From: a virus
IMG/VR virus record: IMGVR_UViG_3300045988_176431
Location: 32,001 to 96,000 of that record
Strand: one strand, 5' to 3'
DNA: 64,000 nucleotides
This document shows positions 2,032 through 52,742 of this stretch, one piece after another. The notes beneath the pieces are model-generated. The model was given only the letters and a program-made list of their open reading frames with translations, ran no database searches and was not told the DNA's origin. The position numbers and the translations under genes were made by a program. Position 1 is the stretch's first letter, and the number at the start of each line of letters is the position of its first letter.

Positions 2032-3006
2032 ATGGCACAACAGAATCAAAGGAAAAAGGTTAGAATTCCTGAAGAAGTTGAATACTTCTCAAAAAGAAAA
2101 TTCAAAAAGTTCAAGAAAAAGAACAAAGATTATTATGACTCAAAGAAAGAGTTAAAAGAAGCGTATTTTTCGGAAATCCTTTATGATGTTCCGAAAGTGA
2201 TTGAATTCCTCTTAAGATTCTCACATATTCAGAGTGATGAAGTAAAAGAGATTAAATCACGTTGTTATGAACAGTTTAGCGGAAAACCTGAAAGTCCGGC
2301 TTTTATTAAATATATTACAAAGTTAGTAAAAGCAGATGGGAATGAAGCAATTCCGAATATTGAGTATTTTCCAATTATTCTTCATGAGATTATTTCGGAC
2401 ATTAACCGATATAATGAAGAAGCAAAGAAGGAAAATCCAGAAGCAGAAGTATTTGATGCTTCTGAACTCTATGAGCTTTCAAATGTTATCTTGAAAAAGA
2501 AGCTTAAGAAAGCAAAGAAAAAAGGAATTGATGACGCAGTTGCGTTTGATTGTTTATCCGTAATTCCTACGGAAGATGCTATGAAATTCTCACCATACTT
2601 CCGAATCAAATCTGTATTTGAAATTATGTATTTACATGCAAAAACAAAACAGATTGATTTTAAGAAGATGATGGATTTGCTTTTAGACGGAGAGTATTAT
2701 GATGTCGTAATCAGTTTTGCTCTTCAGGAAAGAAAAGAGAAATTCCAGAAGTTCAATGAACAACAGAAGAGTTTCTTTAATGATATTAGTGAATGGGTAT
2801 TCAATGAGTTAGAAGATATGGATAAGAAGACCATTGAGAATATCATCCAGACCTATATCAAAACAAGAAAAAGAGATGCTGAACAGAATAAAGATGGAAA
2901 TAGAAGATACTTTATTAGTTCTCTTCCAGAAACATCTTATCCAAAAATTTGTAAAGCTGTTGAACGAATTAAAAATTCAGATGAAACAGCAGAAAAATAT
3001 TTATAA
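2032..3006 (+). CDS. hypothetical Lys-rich protein
   Basis: 324-aa ORF with RBS AAAGGAG. No recognisable motif. Confidence 0.75.
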   Translation: MAQQNQRKKVRIPEEVEYFSKRKFKKFKKKNKDYYDSKKELKEAYFSEILYDVPKVIEFLLRFSHIQSDEVKEIKSRCYEQFSGKPESPAFIKYITKLVKADGNEAIPNIEYFPIILHEIISDINRYNEEAKKENPEAEVFDASELYELSNVILKKKLKKAKKKGIDDAVAFDCLSVIPTEDAMKFSPYFRIKSVFEIMYLHAKTKQIDFKKMMDLLLDGEYYDVVISFALQERKEKFQKFNEQQKSFFNDISEWVFNELEDMDKKTIENIIQTYIKTRKRDAEQNKDGNRRYFISSLPETSYPKICKAVERIKNSDETAEKYL

Positions 3007-3024
3007 TTTACGGGGGATTAGATT

Positions 3025-3999
3025 ATGAAAAATGGAATTTATTCGATTTATATGGGAAGTAGTGAGAATATCGACAAAATTGAGAACACTACTTGTTTCT
3101 CATTAATCGAAAAAGAAAGCAAAAGACAAACCAAAGATGGTAAAAATCCAGTAATTCGTTTCTTATATAACGAATTGAATGGTCAGAGAATTAAGGTTCC
3201 ACCAAGATTCCAAATTACAAATATGGAAGAAGTACCGGATGTTGTAGAATACGATAATGAACACTTCACATCCATTCGTAAGTTGAAATTTGATTTCAAG
3301 GCAAATACAAAGGGAAATAATCGAAAAGGAAAGAGTGATATTTCAGTTTTATTAAACTTTAGTACACTTTCACCATTTCTTTCTCTCACTAACAAAGATG
3401 CAAGTTATTTGTATCTCACAATTGATACAAGCTCTCTTAGCTTGATTCAGTATTCGAAATCAAATATTATTGCAACCTTTAAGAATCCAAAAGCTAATAT
3501 TCTTGGATGCTTGATTGAACTCACAGATGAGGTTCCGCTTACATTCTATACAAGAGATAATTCAAAAAGAGGATTCTTTAAAGTTCATTGTTTCTCTTTA
3601 GATGAGGGTGAGTTGGTTTATACCGTTTCTTCTGATTTAGTTCCAGAAGAATTAAGGAGTATGAGAGCTCTTTGGAACCGTAAGAAGAAAACAAGGACAT
3701 TCCTGTATAACTTTAATGTTATGCCGGCAGCTCATTTGACTCATACAGAAACTGAAGAGAGACCGAATTCGATTGTTTGTAAAGCAAGAGAAGATTGTGA
3801 ATCAGATGATGAGTTCGTTAAAGAAGTAGAAGAGTCATTAAGAGCAGCAATTGGATATGTTCCAAAAGCAGTTGTTCTTGATAAAGACTTTACAGACATG
3901 ACATATGAAGATATGATTAAACTTCGTTTCACATATGTCTTTGGAACTAGAGAGAATGAAGATGGTTCCACTTATACGGTAACTTTAAAATCAAACTAA
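3025..3999 (+). CDS. hypothetical protein
   Basis: 324-aa ORF with RBS GGGGGA 7 nt upstream. Confidence 0.75.
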   Translation: MKNGIYSIYMGSSENIDKIENTTCFSLIEKESKRQTKDGKNPVIRFLYNELNGQRIKVPPRFQITNMEEVPDVVEYDNEHFTSIRKLKFDFKANTKGNNRKGKSDISVLLNFSTLSPFLSLTNKDASYLYLTIDTSSLSLIQYSKSNIIATFKNPKANILGCLIELTDEVPLTFYTRDNSKRGFFKVHCFSLDEGELVYTVSSDLVPEELRSMRALWNRKKKTRTFLYNFNVMPAAHLTHTETEERPNSIVCKAREDCESDDEFVKEVEESLRAAIGYVPKAVVLDKDFTDMTYEDMIKLRFTYVFGTRENEDGSTYTVTLKSN

Positions 4000-20757: not shown

Positions 20758-21140
20758 CAATTTATTTTATTCATATAAGTTCGTTATACTTATATCTGTT
20801 TTTATACAGCTATACTTCTCAGTATAGATTAGACTATATCTTCATCCTTATATTCTATTACCAAACATAAAGAGCCTACCATTTCGTAAAGCACCAATTT
20901 CGTGCACCCAGACTTCTGGTCTACTCTACTCAGTTATTCATATATAGATTTCTCTATATACTATCCTTTCGATAGTCGTTGAACATTCCTAATTGTTATT
21001 AGGCTTTGCTGCGGATTGTCTCTATCCTTAACGTTTTTACTATATTTTCAATATTAGTAGGTAAGACTTAACGAGAGTTCCCCGCAATTAGATAGGTTTT
21101 CCTTAAAAGTTTATGCAACTTTCTCACGCCCAGTGATTTT
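20758..21140 (-). mobile_element. group I intron B (ORF-less, minus strand)
   Basis: Reverse complement of the shared intron core. P1 pairs ACGCCT with GGGCGT, with a terminal U-G. P10 pairs AAATCAC with GTGATTT. Splicing gives FTCTP-GDLD. Confidence 0.8.
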
Positions 21141-21977
21141 AGGCGTGCATGTAAATATACGACCATATAATGTATGATTTTTCTTTGATTTTTCTGCGGC
21201 TGTATTAAATGTAGAAACCGAGTTCTGAACAATAACATCAATATGAGATGTAAATTCAGGCTCGTCAAAATGTAATAATGGTGAAGTTAAACCACGGGCT
21301 AAGTTTAATGCCTGTGCATAACTTGTTGCTTTTGCTTTAACGGTAATACTATTTCCTGTCACAGGATGTTGCATACGGGTTGCATTTTTAACCATCTTTG
21401 TAATTTTACCGTCTTCATCCATATAAGATTCAAATCGTAAATATTCAGGTAATATCTCAATTTGTGCAGCGACACGACGTAAATTTTCTTTTGCATTCTC
21501 ACCATCTTTATTTACAAAAATAAAGTTAGAGTTTGAAGTACCAAAAGAATATGCCCATGTTTGTATACACAATGCTGAAACAGTTTTACCTTGCTGACGA
21601 CAAAGACATAACCATGAATCATACCCATGTAATAAACACCAAGCTTGTGCAATATTACCACGATTTGCACGATATGGAACACCATTTTTCATACCAGGCT
21701 CTGGAATTCTTGCTACCTCACGTAGATAATACCAAGGATTCTTTGTACATTCTACCATGATACGTGAAATTTGGTCTTTTGACAAACTTGTTCGTTCTGT
21801 CTTTTCATCTACTTGAAAAGCATCTACATTTGTCAAACTAATATCACATATTTCTAGCATGAAATAAAAGTTTTTTATTCCTACTTTTTTTAAATCAGTA
21901 GCAACTTTTAAAAAACTTTTATTGGCAGTTCCAGTATCATAATACTTTCCATTTATTTTCCTTATTCTATGTGCCAA
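21141..21977 (-). CDS. terL: terminase large subunit, exon 1 (ATPase half)
   Basis: Walker A CRQQGKT, Walker B LLHFDEPE, motif III TCTP. Likely TTG start 8 nt after AAAGGAGG (protein LAHRIRK...). Confidence 0.85.
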
Positions 21978-29872: not shown

Positions 29873-30239
29873 TAAAGTTAGGTGATTTAAAACTTACCTA
29901 ATTGCGGGAAACTCTCGTTAAGTTCTAGTTACTAACTTATGATAGTAATATACATAAGGGCAAGGGGTAACTCCTAAGGTATAGTAAAAAAACTAGAAAT
30001 AGAGACAATCGACGCAGGGAAGTATCTCTTATGAGATATGGCTTCAACGACTATCGAAAGGATAATATATAGAGAAATCTATATATGAATAACTGAGTAG
30101 AGTAGACCAGTTAATCTGGGTGTACGTTATTGGTACTTTACGAAACGGTAAGTGTTATAAATATGGTAATAGTATTTATAATAAAGATATAGTCTATTCT
30201 ATATAGTGATATATAGTATTAAAGAATTTTACAGCTTTG
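29873..30239 (+). mobile_element. group I intron C (ORF-less)
   Basis: Shared core. P1 pairs AAATCGCT with GGTGATTT, with a terminal U-G at 29872. The 3' end is ambiguous. G30239 keeps the reading frame with the U-G 5' site. G30234 would fit a P10 pairing but needs a 5' site one nt later. Confidence 0.75.
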
Positions 30240-31719: not shown

Positions 31720-32034
31720 TTATAAATCCTCACTTTCTTCATCTTCTATATCATCACTCAGACCCATCACATCGTCAATAGACATATCATGATCTGCTTG
31801 AGCAATTCTATTAATTTCTTCATTTCTGTCTGCATCATCATCTGGAATCTGATCAATCGCATCATCCAATTGCTCATCTGTAAATTCCGTAGAATCAAAT
31901 GCATCAGGACACATATGTTTTACCGAATCTATGGCATCGTTGATTTCTGCATCTTCGACAATACATTTTGTATACTCCATATCTCTGACCATCTCAGCTC
32001 TTTCTAAGAGAACTGAATTTATTCCATTAGTCAT
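31720..32034 (-). CDS. highly acidic small protein
   Basis: 104 aa, Asp/Glu-rich throughout. RBS AAAGGCGG. Confidence 0.7.
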   Translation of the reverse strand: MTNGINSVLLERAEMVRDMEYTKCIVEDAEINDAIDSVKHMCPDAFDSTEFTDEQLDDAIDQIPDDDADRNEEINRIAQADHDMSIDDVMGLSDDIEDEESEDL

Positions 32035-34375: not shown

Positions 34376-35228
34376 ATGGAAAAAAAGAGTAAAGAGTTTA
34401 ATATACTCATCTCAGTTCCAGAGATTACTAATAAAAAAGATATGAAGAAGTTTTTAAAACCGATTTATATCATAGAAGATTATCTGTTAGATGAATCTCG
34501 TTATGGAGATTTAGAACAGACTATCAGAAATCTTCTTCGTGGATGTTTTCATATTAAAGAATGTAGAGAATATCCAATTGAGTTTAAGTTTTATCGAAAA
34601 GATAAAGAAACACATAAGTTGCAGATTCGAAGATTTTTATATAATCTTTATATTTGGAAACCATTTTGCATGTTAAATGAATTTCATATTCTGGATGAAA
34701 ATTATATTCTTTCAGAAGAAGAAATTCCAAATGTAACAGAGTTTTTGAACGAAAAAATACTTACCACTCTTCAGGATTATAACATTGAACAGATTTTGAT
34801 TAACGAATCAATCTCTAATGTATTATATAGTCTCCGTTCAATTTCATTAGATTTTAGTGATATTATGAATCTTACTTTTAGTGATCATGATTTCATTGAG
34901 ATGTTAAATGATCCAGAATATCGAGAGATTATGGAATTAAAGATTCCTGAAGATATGCAACCAATTGAAGTAGAAAAACTACTTTCTCAGTATCAACAAA
35001 GGTTGGTGAGAAAGTTAAAACAAGATAAAAATAATCCAGTAGGAATCATGCTTAGGGCTGGAACTGGTGTAAAAGAAAAACAGTTAGCAGAGTATATGAT
35101 TGCTATGGGATTGAAGCCAACATTAACTGGTGAAGTTATGCCTATACCAATTGAAACATCATCTCTATTAGGAGGTTTAAATAGACCATCGTATCAGTAC
35201 ATTGATGCGATAGCAGCCCGTAAACCGT
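34376..35228 (+). CDS. RNA polymerase beta-prime-like subunit, C-terminal half, exon 1
   Basis: MLRAGTGVKEKQLAEYMIAMGLKP...PIETSSLLGGLNRPSYQYIDAIAARKP aligns to beta-prime SGARGS..QLAGMRGLM..PI..NFREGL..EYFISTHGARKG. Confidence 0.8.
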
Positions 35229-38921: not shown

Positions 38922-39626
38922 ATGAAATATTTTATTGGCTTATTATCAACAAAAAATAGTAAGAAACGCATGGAAAGTAAATCAGAGTTTTTAGCACTCT
39001 TTAAATTGGATTATGAGGATGAAGGAAGAATTGCTTTAGAACATGTAAGAAAGAAACTTCCTGTAATTTCTCCAGAAAATTACAGTATTGAGAAAATGTT
39101 TGATTTATCAGATTCAGAAGATTTCCTGAACTGTATTAATCAATACATCAATCATACAATCAATGTAAAAATCAAGAAAACAAAATTAAATACTTATTAC
39201 ATTGATACTTCGGTCAAGATTAATGTGTTTGATTTACGTTTTCATGATTTACCAGTTTCATTTGTTCATGTCATTTCTAGACCAAAAATTATTGGAGATC
39301 CGGATATAAAGAAATGGCTTTCAGATGTAAATGAAGAAATCGATGACATCGTCTGTATTAATGAAAGTAATTATGCTACTCTTGAGACAAGTATGATTCA
39401 ACGTTCTGGTGAGATTCATGAGCAGTATTGGAGATGCTTGTTGATGAAAACAGATGTAGGTGTCATCTTCCATGATGTGCATTTAAATATGATTATGGAA
39501 ATTGCATCTGATTTGTATCAGTTAGCAGAACAGTATCAGAGATGGTTATACTTCTTCTTTGTTGATAATAACCATCAACTGTATAAAGTTACCGTTGATG
39601 ATAAGTTAACAGTAGAACGTTGCTAA
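38922..39626 (+). CDS. hypothetical protein
   Basis: ATG (MKYFIG) 8 nt after AAAGGATGA. Confidence 0.7.
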   Translation: MKYFIGLLSTKNSKKRMESKSEFLALFKLDYEDEGRIALEHVRKKLPVISPENYSIEKMFDLSDSEDFLNCINQYINHTINVKIKKTKLNTYYIDTSVKINVFDLRFHDLPVSFVHVISRPKIIGDPDIKKWLSDVNEEIDDIVCINESNYATLETSMIQRSGEIHEQYWRCLLMKTDVGVIFHDVHLNMIMEIASDLYQLAEQYQRWLYFFFVDNNHQLYKVTVDDKLTVERC

Positions 39627-39649
39627 AGTTTTATAATGTATATAAATAA

Positions 39650-39662
39650 TTATATATTATTT
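39650..39662 (+). promoter_or_regulatory. TTATATATTATTT motif, copy 4
   Basis: Exact 13-mer immediately upstream of an ORF-free structured region. Confidence 0.5.
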
Positions 39663-39679
39663 TCATGTAAATACTAATT

Positions 39680-39890
39680 AGTGTTACAGAAACCCAAAGA
39701 GATTGATACCTGTCTGTCGGGATAGATCATCAGGAAGTTTAAATACACCGAGTGTCAAAAGGGGTTTCCATTTATATCTTATTCGGCATTTCCGGTAAGA
39801 TGTTAAATGTTATTGATGGCAGAGGAGGGTAATATATGGCAGAACTTAAAGATCAATAAATATCTTTAAGGATTAGGTACCCTTCTCAAT
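39680..39890 (+). ncRNA. candidate structured non-coding RNA, unclassified
   Basis: No ORF, and locally GC-richer than its flanks. Pairings are 39689-39695 (GAAACCC) with 39762-39768 (GGGTTTC), and 39821-39830 with 39877-39886 (10 bp including one G-U). A nested perfect 9-bp hairpin pairs 39845-39853 with 39862-39870. The region is flanked by the promoter motif and a terminator. Confidence 0.45.
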
Positions 39891-39899
39891 ATAAGCAAA

Positions 39900-39938
39900 A
39901 AGAAGTCTGATAAATAAAATTATCAGACTTCTTTTTTT
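39900..39938 (+). terminator. intrinsic terminator
   Basis: 13-bp stem AAGAAGTCTGATA / TATCAGACTTCTT followed by a T7 run. Confidence 0.85.
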
Positions 39939-40022
39939 ATTGATTATAGATAAAATCAATATCTTATATTCTATTTTTTTTATTACTTTTTTTTAATATT
40001 TTAAGAAATGAGGTATTTTTAT

Positions 40023-41261
40023 ATGTCATACAAAAACTTATTAATTGAAGAATTAAGAAATGACGAAGACAAAAAAGAAGATTTATTTAGTATCAATGCA
40101 GAGACAGATACTTATAAAACTGGTATTGCACCACTTGATTATGCTCTTGGTTATGTGGTACGTGTATATAATGATGATAATACCGTTAATGAAGAATATA
40201 AAGCACTCGGTATTAGTGGTGGTTGTAATGTAATGACGATTGGAAAATCATCAACAGCAAAGACATCCACTATGCTTTATATTGCCGCTAATATTGTAAG
40301 AAAATATGAAAGCGGATCAGTAATTCATTTTGACCTTGAACAGGCTATGAACTTATCAAGAGCAAGAACTATGACGAAATTTTCAATTGATGAAATTAAA
40401 GGTGGTAAATATATTTTAAGACAGTCTGATACATCCGTTGAAAAGATTAAACGTAGTATTATTAAATTATACAAAAAGAAAAAAGATAATCCAGAAACGT
40501 TTAAATATAACGCTGGAAAGAAAAATGAATTAGGGGAAGATATTGTTGTATATGAACCAACAGTAGTTCTTATTGATTCAATCCCTTCTATGACAGTAGA
40601 GATGAATGAAAATGATAAAAAAGATTTGAAGAAAATTGAAGAGATCTCATCTCAGACAGATCGAATGAGATTAACTGGTGAGATTGGAAGATTTTATACA
40701 GATCTTTTGCAATATATTAAATCAGTAAATATCATGACTATGTCAATCAACCATATTAAAGTGAATCCAAATATGGGAATTGTTAAGAGCCCTGCTGAAT
40801 TGTTATACTTGAAGCAAGATGAGGCACTTCCAGGCGGTAAAGCTCCAGTATATTTAGCACATATTCTTTTAAAATCCGTTGCGATTGGTAGTGCTAAATT
40901 TAATTTGGAAGATGATGGATTTGATGGTTTCGGCATTGCCTTACAGATTATTAAATCCAGATCAAATCAAGCAGGTCAAACAGTAAATCTTATTTATGAT
41001 AAGGTACGTGGTATTGATCCACTTAGAACATGTCTTTTGTATGCAAAAGAACAGGGATTATTAAGTGGTAATAAGAATGCTACATATTTTACAGATGATA
41101 AAGAGCATAAATTCCCTATGAGAACCGTAAATGAATATTTTAGGGAACACAGAGAAATGTACAAGATTATGTATGACCACATTATTCCGTTACTTGATAA
41201 AAGACTTTCTTCTGTAGCAGAAGAGGAATTAGAAGTTGTTGATGAGTTAATGGATTACTAA
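40023..41261 (+). CDS. RecA-family recombinase (UvsX/RadA-like)
   Basis: Walker A TIGKSSTAKTS, Walker B VVLIDSIPSM, and GGKAPVYLAH. Start at MSYKNL after GAGGT. Confidence 0.75.
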   Translation: MSYKNLLIEELRNDEDKKEDLFSINAETDTYKTGIAPLDYALGYVVRVYNDDNTVNEEYKALGISGGCNVMTIGKSSTAKTSTMLYIAANIVRKYESGSVIHFDLEQAMNLSRARTMTKFSIDEIKGGKYILRQSDTSVEKIKRSIIKLYKKKKDNPETFKYNAGKKNELGEDIVVYEPTVVLIDSIPSMTVEMNENDKKDLKKIEEISSQTDRMRLTGEIGRFYTDLLQYIKSVNIMTMSINHIKVNPNMGIVKSPAELLYLKQDEALPGGKAPVYLAHILLKSVAIGSAKFNLEDDGFDGFGIALQIIKSRSNQAGQTVNLIYDKVRGIDPLRTCLLYAKEQGLLSGNKNATYFTDDKEHKFPMRTVNEYFREHREMYKIMYDHIIPLLDKRLSSVAEEELEVVDELMDY

Positions 41262-41276: not shown

Positions 41277-41287
41277 TTTTGGTAAAG

Positions 41288-41325
41288 AAGATGAGTAAAG
41301 TTTAAATAAAAACTTTACTCATCTT
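41288..41325 (+). terminator. 15-bp hairpin (terminator of the recombinase gene, or 5'-leader hairpin of the next unit)
   Basis: Stem AAGATGAGTAAAGTT / AACTTTACTCATCTT. It lies downstream of the 13-mer, so its role is ambiguous. Confidence 0.5.
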
Positions 41326-41353
41326 TAAAAAATATAAGGAAAGGTAGGTGATA

Positions 41354-42103
41354 ATGAATATGAGTGTTTCTTATGTTAATATGATTCTGCAAGGAGGGAT
41401 TTATTACTTTGAATTAAATGAAGAAACAAAAAACAGACCGTTTTTGGTAATTTCAAAAGACAATGGATATGGAAAAGATGTTTTAGCATTTGTGATTACG
41501 GAACGATTTACTAGTACAGATGTATCACTTCCGATTGTACTAAATAATTATGTTTCTTTTATTCGTGTATCAGGCTCAAAAGAAGTTCCAAAATCAAAAA
41601 TTATAAATTCATCGTTTAATGGTGTTTTAATTCCAGATGTGTTTAATATAGCAATCCGAATGTATATGAGACGATTTGCTATCGTTAATGAAAAAGAATT
41701 GGAAAAAGATTTGAATGATTATTTGGATAAAATTGAGAAAGAGGGTCATTATTATTATCTAGACCGAAAGAAACGGTTTAGAAAAAAAGAATACCTGAGA
41801 AATCAATTATTTTTGGAAGATAGTAAGGCAAAAATTGTATTTCCTGAAAAAGAAGAGAACAATGTGAATATTTCAAAATCAAACACAATTAATGGACCTT
41901 TAGATGATGAGGTTATGAAAGATTTTACTTTAAAGCAATTATTTACAATAAAGAGAATGATACATGAGCAATCAAAGAAAGACATTCAAAAAAAGTATCT
42001 ATTGGATAATTGGAAGTGTGATTATATTTGTACCAATATCGAACGATTAATCACAAGGAAAAAACGTGGGGAAAATATGTATAAAAAGAAAAGAAAAAAA
42101 TGA
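41354..42103 (+). CDS. PemK/MazF-like domain protein with ~150-aa Lys-rich C-terminal extension
   Basis: The N-terminus GGIYYFELNEETKNRPFLVISKDNGYGKDVLAFVITERF resembles the MazF/PemK pattern G-iy-v-l...RP-lVis...v-v-piTs. Confidence 0.6.
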   Translation: MNMSVSYVNMILQGGIYYFELNEETKNRPFLVISKDNGYGKDVLAFVITERFTSTDVSLPIVLNNYVSFIRVSGSKEVPKSKIINSSFNGVLIPDVFNIAIRMYMRRFAIVNEKELEKDLNDYLDKIEKEGHYYYLDRKKRFRKKEYLRNQLFLEDSKAKIVFPEKEENNVNISKSNTINGPLDDEVMKDFTLKQLFTIKRMIHEQSKKDIQKKYLLDNWKCDYICTNIERLITRKKRGENMYKKKRKK

Positions 42104-43255: not shown

Positions 43256-43673
43256 TAACATAACAGCCAGTCATATTAGGCGACTAATATGTTACAAACT
43301 CCATGAATTGCGGGGAACTCTCGTTAGGTTCTAGTTACTAAACTAAGATAGTGATATACTTAGTGGCAAAGGGTAACTCCTAAGGTATAGTAAAAAGACT
43401 AGAAATAGAGACAATCGACGCAGGGAAGTATCTTAATAATATAAGATATGACTTCAACGACTATCGAAAGTATAGGTTAAGAGAAATACTTAACTGAATA
43501 AACGAGTAGAGTAGACCAGAAGTCTGGGTGCACGAAATTGGTGCTTTACGAAGTGTGGAGCTCTTTATATTTGGTGACAGAATATAAAGATGAAGATATA
43601 GTCTAATCTATACTGAGAAGTATAGCTGTATAAAAACAGATATAAGTGTAACGAACTTATATGAATAATCATG
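43256..43673 (+). mobile_element. group I intron E (ORF-less)
   Basis: Shared core. P1 pairs ACTGGT with GCCAGT, with a terminal U-G. P10 pairs CATAAC with GTTATG. Splicing gives GHKFTG-RYGNKSVVSRVLPDKDMP, matching GDKMAGRHGNKGVISKI.P.EDMP. Confidence 0.9.
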
Positions 43674-45335: not shown

Positions 45336-46571
45336 ATGATGGAACAAAGACCACATGAAGTAAAATATGTTACTATGATGGGAAGTGCGGCTCATACTTA
45401 TGGGAATGCACTTGCAACAGTACAAAATTGGGTAATGAATTTATTCCCAGAAAAAACATTTAAAACAATTCATGTTAATTCACGTATTACACATAGACAG
45501 ATGCTTAGTACACCTCATGAGTTTTTGAAGAAATCAAAACCTATGATTATTTTTCGTCCTAGAATTAGTTATGATGAAGACAGGTTTTTAAATCATACAT
45601 TATTAACTGAACGACAAGGTGATATTTATAACGCAGGTGCTTATACCGATTTACAGCCATTCTTTCAAGATAATCAAAGTAAGATTGCTTGTAAATATAC
45701 ATTAAATCGATATGTGATGTATGTGGATGTTGTAATGATATTTAACACATTAATTCAACAAATTAACTATATTCATTTTTTGAAGAATGCAACAAGAATT
45801 GGTATTCCATTTGATATTGAAACTTTTTTAGAGAGTTACATTTCAACTGATATGATGAAAATGATTTCTAAACTTTCAGGTATACCGATTGTATCAGAGG
45901 ATGGTAATACGAAAGACTTTTTGGATTATATGAATACAAATTCTGAATATCCAGTTACTTATAAATTACAAGGAAGTTCTGGTACCGATGAGTATTATCG
46001 ATATTATCCTGCTAAGATTCTTACTACAATTTCAGATATCTCAGCAGATGATGGAGAACGAGTTGGACAAATTACAAATGCTTATCAATGTTCTTTTACA
46101 ATGAAATTAGAATTCTTTGGTACAGGATTTTATTATTTATTCTCAGATAAAATTCATGATTTACCAAAATTTAAAATACCAGATGATTCTACTTTGATTC
46201 CAATCTTTACAGATGTTCTTTTGGAAGAAGATTTATGTCTAGCACCAGGATGGAAAGTATACAATCATTTTTCTTGTCAATTAGATAAAGAATATGATAA
46301 TGTTGATTTTGAAGGAACTTTAAATACTTCTATAAGAGAAGCTGTTCAGTTTCATTTAAAAACAGGAAGACCATTAGTTGATTTAATTGACATAAAGGTT
46401 AGACGTCAAGGTAATTTATTACAGAATATGAAAGATTATACGATTGATTGGGAACATTTTAAAATCAATTTCAATAATAAAAGCTATGGATTCTTTACTT
46501 ACAAAGTAATTGTGTCAATTAATGTATTATACATTAATGAATTAATTAAAGAAATCTATAAGTTAAAATAA
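45336..46571 (+). CDS. hypothetical protein
   Basis: 411-aa ORF. Confidence 0.75.
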   Translation: MMEQRPHEVKYVTMMGSAAHTYGNALATVQNWVMNLFPEKTFKTIHVNSRITHRQMLSTPHEFLKKSKPMIIFRPRISYDEDRFLNHTLLTERQGDIYNAGAYTDLQPFFQDNQSKIACKYTLNRYVMYVDVVMIFNTLIQQINYIHFLKNATRIGIPFDIETFLESYISTDMMKMISKLSGIPIVSEDGNTKDFLDYMNTNSEYPVTYKLQGSSGTDEYYRYYPAKILTTISDISADDGERVGQITNAYQCSFTMKLEFFGTGFYYLFSDKIHDLPKFKIPDDSTLIPIFTDVLLEEDLCLAPGWKVYNHFSCQLDKEYDNVDFEGTLNTSIREAVQFHLKTGRPLVDLIDIKVRRQGNLLQNMKDYTIDWEHFKINFNNKSYGFFTYKVIVSINVLYINELIKEIYKLK

Positions 46572-46575
46572 AAAA

Positions 46576-46608
46576 ATAAGGTAGTATGGTTTTTCCATAC
46601 TACCTTAT
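46576..46608 (+). terminator. intrinsic terminator
   Basis: 14-bp stem ATAAGGTAGTATGG / CCATACTACCTTAT followed by a T run. Confidence 0.85.
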
Positions 46609-46937
46609 TTTTATGACGGATAAAGAACCACAAGGAGGGACAAGTTCCTTGTGGTTCTTTCTCGAATATATAGTCAACATGTAATCATGATGTATACAAT
46701 TTACAGTGTGTCTGTCGTCGTAATCGATAAAATTTGCAAAGTTTTAAAAACATAATCAACAAAAAAGAGGAGTTTATCATTATCAGTCAAAAAAAACATC
46801 AGCATTTGAAAACCAAGCTTCTGTATACATATGATTTACATGAGTTTAGCCATTCATAAATCAAATTTTAAATTAATGTTAAAAAAAATAAAAGTAAAAA
46901 CTAAAATATAATTTATAAAGAAAGGATAAATAGTTTT

Positions 46938-49935: not shown

Positions 49936-50020
49936 TTTTAGTCTAGTTAATGGTATAAAAAATAATACCATTAATGACAACATAATAACATAAAATTTTT
50001 TCAGAAAGTGAGGATGAAAT

Positions 50021-50818: not shown

Positions 50819-51244
50819 TTGATTAAATATCTTAAAAATTATGCTTCTGAATTTGAAAGAGATTTAAATATTCCTCTTATGAACAAAGAAGCAGATAGAC
50901 CATTAGTTGAATATGTAATTGATTCATGGAAATCATTACAGATTCTTGATGGTATCGAATTTCTTGATTATGAGTATACAGAAAAAGAATCTGATATTGA
51001 GATTAATAAGTATATTTATAAACGTGAGAAAGGAAAACGCAAAAACGAGAAATTTGATTACAAATTTGTGGATGATAGTAGATGTGGACTTCTTACTGTC
51101 CGTATGAAATTATCTGCAATTGAAAAAGATTTCAAAACAGGTGATACGTATTTAAAAGAAAAAATTATTAAAAAGAGTATGTTGATTCCTTTACAGGATG
51201 ACAAAGGACTATTCTGTATCAAAGGAAAAAATTACTATTTGATT
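50819..51244 (+). CDS. RNA polymerase beta-like subunit, N-terminal half, exon 1
   Basis: TTG start 9 nt after AAGGGGG. Ends at MLIPLQDDKGLFCIKGKNYYLI, aligning to beta IPLMT..GTFIINGTERVIV. Confidence 0.8.
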
Positions 51245-51617
51245 TAGTTTGATAGATCAAACAAAACTCTTCTAATTGCGGGGAACTCTCGTTAGGTCTT
51301 AACTACTAAACTAAGATGGTGACATACTTAGTGACAAGGGGTAACTCCTAAGGTATAGTAAAAAGGTTAAGAATAGAGACAATCGACGCAGCGAAGTATC
51401 TTATAAATAATAAGGTATAAGATATGAGTTCAACGACTATCGAAAGGATAGCATAAGAGAAATACTTATGTGAATAACTGAGTAGAGTAGACTAGTATAT
51501 ATTATACTAGGTGTACGAAATTGGTACTTTACGAAATGGAGAGCATATTATATTTGGTAATAGAATATAATGTGAAGATATAGTCTAATCCTCATGGATA
51601 ACATGATGGTGTAAATG
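51245..51617 (+). mobile_element. group I intron F (ORF-less)
   Basis: Shared core. P1 pairs TTTGATT with GATCAAA, with a terminal U-G. P10 pairs TTGATA with TATCAG. Splicing gives NYYLI-YQMVEKS. Confidence 0.85.
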
Positions 51618-52379
51618 TATCAGATGGTAGAAAAATCTACCTATACGTCAAATAATTCTGTTATTTTGAAATCTTTAATGCCTTTTATGATAAAAAGACA
51701 AATAACAAAACAGGAAGATATTCATGAAAATGAATATCAGATTCCTTATTATACCATTGATTTGTTTCGAAAAGATATTCCGATTATGCTTCTTTATGCA
51801 TCCAAAGGAATGAATCGTGCGTTACAATATGCTATTCAATCCTATCCTTATGTAGCAATTAACTTTGTTACAAAACCAAAAGAAACGGACAAAAAGCATA
51901 TTTATTTCCAGATATCTTCTAAGTTGTACTTAAAAGTACATAAGAAGTTATTTGAAAAGTTTCCATATATCCAATCCGTAGTTGGTGGTATTTTACATAT
52001 CTCAACGAATCGATTGACATTGGATAAATTGGATAATACAGATATCTGGATTAAGAAATTAAGTAATAATAACATTGAAAAAGGAAAGAATCTTTTAGAT
52101 TCTTTAAAACGTCTTTTAGATGTAACTACAAAGAAAATATTAAAAACAGATATATCAAACAAATTAGATGTACTTGCTGTTATTCGTTGGATGAGTCAAG
52201 ATTTCAATGAATTACGAATGAAAGATAATATGAATATTGAAAATAAGCGATTACGATGTAATGAATACATTGCATCTTTACTGACACAAGAATTTAGTAA
52301 GAAACTTAATCGTATTATGTCTCTAGGTGGAAAAGCAACCATTGATAATCTTAGAGAAATTTTCAAATTTCCAGGCGAT
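51618..52379 (+). CDS. RNA polymerase beta-like subunit, N-terminal half, exon 2
   Basis: In-frame continuation, YQMVEKSTY...EIFKFPGD. Confidence 0.8.
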
Positions 52380-52742
52380 AGAATTAGAGTGTCGCCGTTA
52401 AACCTATCTAATTGCGGGAAACTCTCGTTATGTTCTAGTTACTAAACTAAGATGGTGACATACTTAGTGGCAAAGGGTAACTCCTAAGGTATAGTAAAAA
52501 GACTAGAAATAGAGACAATCGACGCAGCGAAGTATCTTATAAGTATAAGATATGAGTTCAACGACTATCGAAAGGATAGCATAAGAGAAATACTTATGTG
52601 AATAACTGAGTAGAGTAGACTAGTATATATAAATACTAGGTGTACGAAATTTGTACTTTACGAAACGGTAGGCTCTTTATATTTGGTAATAGAATATAAA
52701 GATGAAGATATAGTCTAAACTTTATGGATAACATAGAGAATG
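52380..52742 (+). mobile_element. group I intron G (ORF-less)
   Basis: Shared core. P1 pairs GGCGAT with GTCGCC, with a terminal U-G. A 7-bp P10 pairs TTAGAGT with ATTCTAA, fixing the 3' site at G52742. Confidence 0.8.

Follow-up and report, generated by a model that had tools for sequence, protein, structure and literature searches.

The window analysed here, 64,000 nt of IMG/VR virus record IMGVR_UViG_3300045988_176431 (positions 32,001 to 96,000), carries at 39648-39943 on the plus strand a unit that we take, with moderate confidence, to be a small-RNA gene, its product a structured non-coding RNA, in a gut jumbo phage of the AR9/PBS1 type. The unit sits between a gene for a 249-amino-acid protein and uvsX, the gene for a UvsX-type recombinase, and a diverged paralog is present elsewhere in the same genome; the RNA would represent a family not previously described, of which each genome has two or more diverged copies. 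The sequence features of a small-RNA gene were found together, namely a promoter and a terminator, no conserved open reading frame (ORF), a conserved structure and a conserved segment predicted to be accessible. The data best fit a small-RNA gene because of the early promoter, a dedicated terminator that was duplicated along with the RNA, the conserved fold, an invariant, largely unpaired stretch of 20-27 nt and an invariant hairpin apex. On the best reading the family is new, lineage-restricted and dispensable, and its members would probably act in trans. A first-pass annotation had proposed a stand-alone promoter-to-terminator RNA unit at this site, an interpretation now supported by the AR9-type promoter, the terminator, the lack of a conserved ORF or of a known family, and comparative evidence.

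Promoter, terminator and RNA body

The source of the window is judged to be an uncultivated gut jumbo phage resembling AR9, from the likeness of its UvsX (the RecA-like gene at 40023-41261; ~32% identity to Bacillus phages AR9 and PBS1 and to Staphylococcus jumbo phages), the split RNA-polymerase subunit genes downstream of uvsX, a near-identical 249-kb IMG/VR contig (L001/L023) and the recurrence of the same phage species in many assemblies from pig and human gut. The parts of the unit and its flanks are the following.

39640-39645, plus strand: left copy of the direct repeat ATATAA, flanking a deletable segment
39648-39667, plus strand: putative AR9-type early (virion RNA polymerase) promoter, AATTATATATTAT-(TTTCAT)-G, with the predicted start at G39667
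39667-39688, plus strand: 5' hairpin GUAA(A)UACU-AAUU-AGUGUUAC; G39683A changes a U-G to a U-A pair, and the paralog has a longer hairpin of other sequence in the same place
39689-39768, plus strand: domain closed by helix P1 (39689-39695/39762-39768), from the RNAalifold consensus
39699-39704/39725-39731, plus strand: helix P2', GAGAUU with GAUC(A)UC, with one bulged A
39709-39712/39718-39721, plus strand: helix P3', CCUG/CGGG, which is CUCA/UGAG at the paralog
39726-39752, plus strand: invariant block AUCAUCAGGAAGUUUAAAUACACCGAG, 27 nt identical in the paralogs
39769-39809, plus strand: long hairpin D3 with the conserved apex UUAUUCGG-CAUUU-CCG, from allele and paralog comparison
39813-39890, plus strand: copy-specific 3' module with a 10-bp helix, a 9-bp hairpin and GGCAGA repeats
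39837-39860, plus strand: mini-ORF of 7 codons, ATG GCA GAA CTT AAA GAT CAA TAA, 7 nt past the Shine-Dalgarno (SD)-like GAGGAGGG
39889-39894, plus strand: right copy of the direct repeat ATATAA, flanking the deletable segment
39897-39943, plus strand: intrinsic terminator with a 17-bp stem (39897-39913/39920-39936), a 6-nt loop and a T-run to 39943

The early promoters of AR9, which are used by its virion RNA polymerase and were defined by differential RNA sequencing (dRNA-seq), have the form AAATATATATTAT-(6N)-G+1 (PMC5312081). The promoter of the window copy matches this consensus at 12 of 13 positions, with a G at the correct spacing, and the full consensus (13/13) is present in alleles L043, L044, L046, L068 and L071. 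The exact motif copy annotated at 39650 was confirmed as TTATATATTATTT at 39650-39662. The window has 7 exact copies, all intergenic, on the plus strand and upstream of plus-strand genes, and 6 of these 7 have a G exactly 6 nt past TTATATATTAT. Allowing up to one mismatch gives 9 matches, again all on the plus strand, where 2.7 are expected and 0 of 100 shuffles reach 9. The promoter assignment is well supported by analogy with AR9. Some other predicted early transcripts of the phage open with very stable 5' hairpins (41281-41325, z = -9.1; 49940-49980, z = -6.5), and the one predicted at 702 begins GUAAAAUC...GAUUUUAC, resembling the 5' hairpin of the RNA studied here.

The terminator, first described as a 13-bp stem with a T7 run at 39900-39938, was borne out; it can be drawn with a 17-bp stem or with a 12-13-bp G+C-containing stem followed by T7. 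It is nearly base-for-base identical at the paralog, and its core, GAAGTCTGATAA-N6-TTATCAGACTTC, was found only at the two RNA loci in all the DNA examined. The hairpin is retained in both kinds of deletion allele described below. Two kinds of change were observed within it. The loop (39914-39919) and adjacent bases are exactly inverted in L043, L049 and L051-53, from AAATAAAATT to AATTTTATTT, with the stem unchanged, which looks like a hairpin-mediated inversion. In L058-L062 (~2725-2765, corresponding to window 39640-39945) the outer stem is rebuilt on both arms, AAATAA/TTATTT replacing AAAGAA/TTCTTT, and the T-run is lost, which suggests templated repair within the palindrome.

The ~230 nt between promoter and terminator had been called free of ORFs; the longest ORF within 39627-40007 has 31 amino acids, and none is conserved. 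The same stretch had been called GC-richer than its surroundings, which holds against the AT-rich spacers (GC of 0.31-0.40 vs 0.13-0.26) but not against the neighbouring coding sequence, which it equals. Of the pairings originally listed, GAAACCC (39689-39695) with GGGTTTC (39762-39768) is present, and the perfect 9-bp hairpin (39845-39853/39862-39870) and the GGCAGA repeat (at 39818 and 39838) are exact. The 10-bp helix is real as well, with its coordinates displaced by one: it joins 39822-39831 to 39878-39887 and includes one G-U pair.

The body without the terminator (39663-39893) folds on the plus strand at -59.2 kcal/mol, with z = -3.03 and 0 of 200 shuffles equalling it; the corresponding values for the minus strand are z = -1.17 and 23 of 200 shuffles. 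As the body beats its shuffles on the plus strand only, G-U pairs are indicated, and hence RNA. With the terminator included, z is -5.8. Most long intergenic gaps of the same phage have fold z-scores between -3 and -6, so that fold energy alone is not distinctive; the z-score was dropped as a discriminator and the comparative evidence carries the case. One ORF-free gap, 46572-46937, shows very strong folding on both strands (z = -6.1 and -7.8), with two long perfect hairpins right after a stop codon.

The unit had not been assigned to any RNA family, and no Rfam 15 model matches 39500-40100 at the gathering threshold, whether of riboswitches, ribozymes, group I introns, 6S RNA, Y RNA, tmRNA, T-box elements or known small RNAs. 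Sub-threshold searching (E up to 10) returned terminator-driven matches only, the best at 27.8 bits against a threshold of 70, and the paralog likewise has no match in Rfam 15. The search is functional, since it detected three group I introns elsewhere in the window, at 20810-21150 (minus strand), 51235-51608 (plus) and 52370-52738 (plus), with 86, 60 and 57 bits. The ORF-free gaps 29876-30236 and 43259-43670 might contain additional sub-threshold introns. ARAGORN found 0 tRNA or tmRNA genes across the whole window, and BLASTN against GenBank phages found no similar DNA. A type III toxin-antitoxin RNA (ToxI-like) was considered and rejected: self-comparison gave no internal direct repeats, and the downstream products are UvsX and, at the paralog, a 143-amino-acid protein that has no Pfam match.

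Conservation among alleles and at a second locus

About 20 allelic variants at ~91% identity were recovered from gut metagenomes, alleles being taken as within-species where the upstream protein is at least 95% identical. The filled alleles form clade A (the window and L001) and clade B (L041-47, L049, L050 and L063-72), which are ~9% different. Over the body (39667-39893) the clades differ at 17 of 227 sites (7.5%), a lower level than at the third codon positions of the adjacent upstream gene (37 of 235, 15.7%; p = 0.006), and the 74-nt core at 39726-39799 has 0 substitutions between them (p = 4e-5). The RNA region is therefore under purifying selection. Third positions of uvsX differ at 4.8%; because uvsX is less diverged than the upstream gene, a recombination boundary must lie nearby, and for this reason the body was compared with the left-hand block, that is, with the upstream gene.

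The substitutions that did occur preserve the structure. Among the 17 distinct filled alleles used in the pairing count, 97.3% of pair cells are standard pairs, compared with 45-51% when the partners were slid by 1-3 columns, a control that favours the given structure because the helices were derived from the same sequences. All fixed clade differences inside stems preserve pairing, and pair-breaking changes are singletons only. The 9-bp hairpin shows a true compensation between clades (U39847C with A39868G, U-A to C-G). Single-sided stem changes, in which G-C or A-U is exchanged with G-U, occur at 39683, 39695, 39725, 39800, 39802, 39807, 39839 and 39881, and such changes are compatible with pairing on the plus strand only. 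In the 10-bp helix, C39881U, C39882U and C39887U each convert G-C to G-U; P1 goes from C-G to U-G in clade B; P3' varies among alleles from U-G to C-G, U-G to U-A and G-C to G-U; and in D3 three changes switch between U-A and U-G while U39804C is accommodated by a shifted bulge. The first-pass annotation had named conservation and covariation in relatives as a check on the unit, and this check turned out favourable, on the basis of the allelic variants and one paralog.

Two elements of earlier folds were discarded. The minimum free energy (MFE) helix UUGAUAC/GUGUCAA is not conserved and is contradicted by the alleles and the paralog, and was replaced by P2'; a small hairpin at 39710-39725 is contradicted by allelic changes and the paralog, with P2' and P3' in its place. 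The 3' part of the invariant block (~39732-39751, AGGAAGUUUAAAUACACCGAG) is predicted to be mostly single-stranded. Both GGCAGA repeats (39818-39823 and 39838-39843) read GACAGA in clade B, a parallel change that may be coincidental or may mark a recognition site common to both (UGRCAGA).

The paralog came to light when the invariant block was used in an exact-word scan; it lies at L073 5702-5940, in the same IMG/VR genome and ~125 kb from the uvsX copy. It directly follows an NrdG-like radical-SAM gene, and the 143-amino-acid ORF starts 32 nt beyond its terminator. Its promoter-like motif is TTATACATTATTTTCATG. Four exact blocks are common to both copies (CCCAAAGAGATT, AGATCATCAGGAAGTTTAAATACACCGAG, CAAAAGGGGTTT and TTTATTCGGCATTTCCG). 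Between them the sequence has changed and the helices persist: P1 of the paralog, GAAAACCC/GGGUUUUC, is one A-U pair longer; P3' is kept as CUCA/UGAG in place of CCUG/CGGG; and in D3 the inner stem shows a C-G to U-A change while the outer stem is CGCC/GGUG as opposed to CAUUUA/UAAAUG. Constraining P1 to form gives the paralog the same RNAalifold architecture as the alleles, at -55.4 kcal/mol compared with -57.3 for its unconstrained MFE. Retention of helices although some of them have fully diverged in sequence, together with the four exact blocks, argues for selection and not for recent conversion. The paralog lacks the 3' module at 39813-39890 with its 10-bp helix, 9-bp hairpin, GGCAGA repeats and mini-ORF, and the conserved core of the family is therefore 39667-39811 plus the terminator. 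The features that had seemed most striking at first (the 10-bp helix, the 9-bp hairpin and the GGCAGA repeat) lie outside this core.

A covariance model (R1; 122 positions, 37 pairs) scores the paralog at 94 bits, the paralog itself being among the training sequences. Run with filters off, R1 found only the known copy in the whole window (next best 18 bits) and only the paralog over 28 other loci, with the next best scores at 18-20 bits across window and loci. In IMG/VR, exact and gapped pattern scans returned only IMGVR_UViG_3300045988_176405, with the uvsX copy and the paralog, and otherwise chance matches; pattern scans of GTDB genomes and JGI metagenomes gave chance matches only. The RNA is absent downstream of nrdG in relatives. 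Several candidates were set aside: pattern matches in a repeat within a 1922-amino-acid ORF were not taken as copies, L093, L099 and L100 were unsupported by the covariance model, and near-matches to the invariant 18-mer at 35170-35187 and 46313-46330 (2 and 3 mismatches) lie inside coding genes in the same codon register (G-x-L-N-x-P/S) and were judged coincidental. Within the collections scanned, the family is confined to one lineage.

The site upstream of uvsX is polymorphic for presence of the unit. Deletion alleles L051-56 lack ~39643-39890 (~39642 joined to ~39891), a segment flanked by the 6-bp direct repeat ATATAA (39640-45 and 39889-94), and L058-62 lack 39650-39904. The window copy is dispensable, since these natural deletion alleles exist. 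Beyond the species, the slot between a 234-249-amino-acid upstream gene and uvsX was observed in L025-L038 to be a hot spot for cargo exchange: it holds a terminator only in L025 (UvsX 92% identical), a 173-188-amino-acid ORF in L026-30 and L034-37, a ClpP-like gene and a 125-amino-acid ORF in L031, broken small ORFs in L033 and almost nothing in L038. About 15 closer metagenomic relatives have no homolog of the RNA upstream of uvsX and fill the slot with other cargo, and the sequence preceding uvsX in 21 IMG/VR relatives, whose UvsX is 37-63% identical, is unrelated. No translated similarity links the RNA region to the relatives' cargo genes. In L048, positions 2736-3050 carry the same promoter (AAATATATATTATTTTC) followed by an unrelated ORF-free, GC-richer stretch of 315 nt that runs to the contig end. 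This stretch matches neither an Rfam family nor any other sequence, and may represent a further cassette or a chimeric assembly.

The flanking genes were also compared. No homologs of the upstream 249-amino-acid gene were found outside the same phage species. uvsX is uninterrupted in the window and is split after residue ~270-276 by a ~1.2-kb insert in L001 (4828-6012) and many strains, including L041, L045 and L047, some of the inserts having an HNH-like ORF; the distant relatives L012, L013, L015 and L022 are interrupted at this site too, a pattern suggestive of a mobile intron that some genomes have and others lack. The gene after uvsX (41348-42103) has a weak N-terminal PemK/MazF-like match (E = 0.006, 17 bits) that lies under the Pfam cut-off.

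Proposed working and competing explanations

If the unit is a small-RNA gene, the injected virion RNA polymerase would start at G39667, from a promoter placed just past the upstream stop codon, and read-through from the upstream gene would also cover the unit. Transcription would stop at the intrinsic terminator to give an RNA of ~277 nt (~220 nt for the paralog). This RNA would fold into the 5' hairpin, the P1-closed domain with its two inner helices and the long hairpin with its invariant apex, and the invariant, mostly unpaired ~20-nt stretch AGGAAGUUUAAAUACACCGAG would be displayed between helices. From these features we infer a discrete transcript that would act in trans early in infection, its invariant exposed parts binding a partner that may be a host or phage RNA, reached by base pairing, or a protein.

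Several observations weigh against this reading. Many alleles, among them most of clade B, have promoter variants of the form AACTAT(A/G)TATTAT, and the paralog has TTATACATTAT; a C variant at the corresponding position of an AR9 promoter was inactive (PMC5312081). Because many alleles share this C substitution, expression from the unit's own promoter is not assured, and because the RNA lies in the 3' untranslated region (UTR) of the upstream gene, that UTR is a possible source of the transcript. UvsX relatives at 92% identity and below are without the RNA at the uvsX site, the deletion alleles show that the window copy can be lost, and the family was found in one phage lineage only, the collection scans having given nothing else. 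The independent covariation events are few, coming from two allele clades and one paralog, and the shuffle control of pairing (5 of 500) is at a level reachable through relatedness alone. The unconstrained MFE fold of the paralog is without P1, the shared fold being 1.9 kcal/mol higher, and part of the paralog comparison uses a manual register. For the proposed partner, no antisense match to the invariant block was found in the window, and the most stable duplex with any of the 60 translation start regions scanned in the window (-16.6 kcal/mol) was equalled by 16.5% of shuffled seeds.

The main rival is a cis-acting leader that controls read-through into the next gene (uvsX, or the 143-amino-acid ORF at the paralog), whether as a riboswitch, an attenuator or a processive antitermination RNA like put or EAR that acts on the phage RNA polymerase; we judge it unlikely. 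Both copies show the order promoter, structured RNA, terminator, gene. The next gene at the paralog, 32 nt past the terminator, leaves no space for a separate promoter, and uvsX has no early-promoter motif besides the one at 39648-39667. The terminator sequence is also conserved between the paralogs although other helices drifted. No body segment, however, is exceptionally complementary to either terminator arm, as an antiterminator would be: the invariant block (AUCAG|GAAGU) pairs with the arms at -5.7 and -8.5 kcal/mol, which 30% and 10% of random windows equal. With 17-20 bp the terminator is very strong, the two downstream genes are unrelated and no riboswitch family matches. Moreover, in the deletion alleles and in L025 (92% identity) uvsX would be expressed without the element; there it follows a conserved region of 37-50 nt in which its own promoter probably lies.

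A second alternative, to which we give somewhat less credence again, is that the unit is non-functional cargo: a duplicated and decaying remnant of an accessory cassette, such as a moron or mobile-element relic, whose conservation reflects recent ancestry or gene conversion. The slot in close relatives holds unrelated ORFs, broken ORFs or nothing, the unit is present or absent by strain, with a copy of a 6-bp direct repeat on either side of the deletable segment, the promoter is degraded in many alleles, and the family is confined to one lineage. Against a relic stand the divergence of the RNA, half the level of neighbouring synonymous sites and zero in the 74-nt core, the stem substitutions that keep pairing, and the paralogs, which are fully diverged in some helices yet retain helices and four exact blocks; nor do the cargo genes of relatives show translated similarity to the region. 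The selection pattern makes junk or a relic unlikely, and the dispensability of the copy and the many promoters off consensus keep some weight on it.

It is improbable, in our assessment, that the element serves as a 3' UTR of the upstream mRNAs (from the 249-amino-acid gene, and from nrdG at the paralog), stabilising or processing these messages with no independent RNA. Both copies do begin no more than ~15 nt from the stop codon of the gene before them and end at the operon's only terminator; if the promoter variants are inactive, as they may be, all of the RNA would come from read-through. A terminator hairpin alone protects a 3' end, however, and the deletion alleles keep only the hairpin; a stabiliser would need neither an invariant 27-nt block nor a fold of several helices; and a promoter-like motif is kept at both copies, with perfect consensus in some alleles. 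The constraint on the sequence argues for a functional product.

There is a slim chance that the RNA regulates the phage's sigma-less multisubunit RNA polymerases, either as a put/EAR-like read-through element or as a 6S-like decoy for the early-to-late switch. This idea arises because the RNA is tied to an early promoter, the same conserved terminator follows it at both copies, and no promoter space exists at the paralog. In the put/EAR-like form, the early polymerase would be modified to pass the conserved terminator into uvsX and the 143-amino-acid gene.

Finally, a small protein gene, with the 7-codon mini-ORF or a 31-41-amino-acid core ORF (RSSGSLNTP) as product, is very improbable: GAGGAGGG 7 nt before ATG39837 does resemble real start sites of the phage and the invariant block is in frame within ORFs at both copies, but the mini-ORF, probably not a functional product, has an Ala to Thr change in clade B, a premature stop in L044 and no counterpart at the paralog, with its SD-like GAGGAGGG sequestered in the 10-bp helix, and the core ORF through the block is frameshifted in clade B by a 1-nt deletion, has no shared start (TTG without an SD in the window copy; an ATG overlapping the predicted +1 at the paralog) and shows no synonymous variation, the block being identical at the nucleotide level.

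Relation to known systems and significance

The small-RNA gene that we favour can be compared with the early units of AR9. UvsX (~32% identity) places the phage among the relatives of AR9 and PBS1, and the predicted promoter matches at 12 of 13 positions, perfectly in some alleles. In AR9 itself, early promoters are reported to precede protein genes (Lavysh et al. 2017, PMC5312081). Here, by contrast, the predicted promoter is followed by ~230 nt without a conserved ORF and then by a terminator.

Some bacterial small RNAs encoded at mRNA 3' ends, such as DapZ and MicL, have their own promoter and share the terminator of the mRNA. The phage unit resembles them in lying right after the upstream stop codon, with its own predicted promoter, a shared terminator and a conserved unpaired stretch as a possible seed. 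It differs in that the phage RNA would be larger (~220-280 nt) and multi-helical, and there is no sequence relationship. RNAs C and D of T4 are small RNAs of a virulent phage. In phiKZ, a 75-nt small RNA was predicted that northern blotting could not confirm, in a study that stresses how few are known (PMC8244752). The present RNA is like these in being a candidate non-coding RNA of a lytic phage with poorly known function; it has no similarity to them in sequence or structure, and it is a candidate family supported by comparison.

In its arrangement the unit also recalls two other kinds of element. Phage morons are self-contained promoter-to-terminator insertions between conserved genes, and the unit is likewise self-contained, placed in a variable slot between conserved genes and present only in some strains. 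Unlike morons, its cargo is a structured RNA with no protein gene, and two diverged copies occur in one genome. Termination-controlling leader RNAs, such as riboswitches, the put sites of HK022 and the Bacillus EAR element, share with it the order promoter, structured RNA, terminator, gene. The differences are that no antiterminator pairing was found, Rfam has no match and the downstream genes would function without the element in the deletion alleles.

Non-coding RNAs have seldom been described in virulent phages, and hardly ever in jumbo phages. With its promoter, terminator, comparative footprint, two copies and natural deletion strains from pig and human gut, the unit offers a test case for the function of an early phage RNA, and it is a new candidate for Rfam. 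The arrangement suggests that AR9-type early promoters can drive cargo other than proteins. Interest would be considerably greater if the RNA acts on the phage polymerases or on host defence, and should it prove to be a polymerase regulator, it would have no described precedent among RNAs acting on jumbo-phage polymerases.

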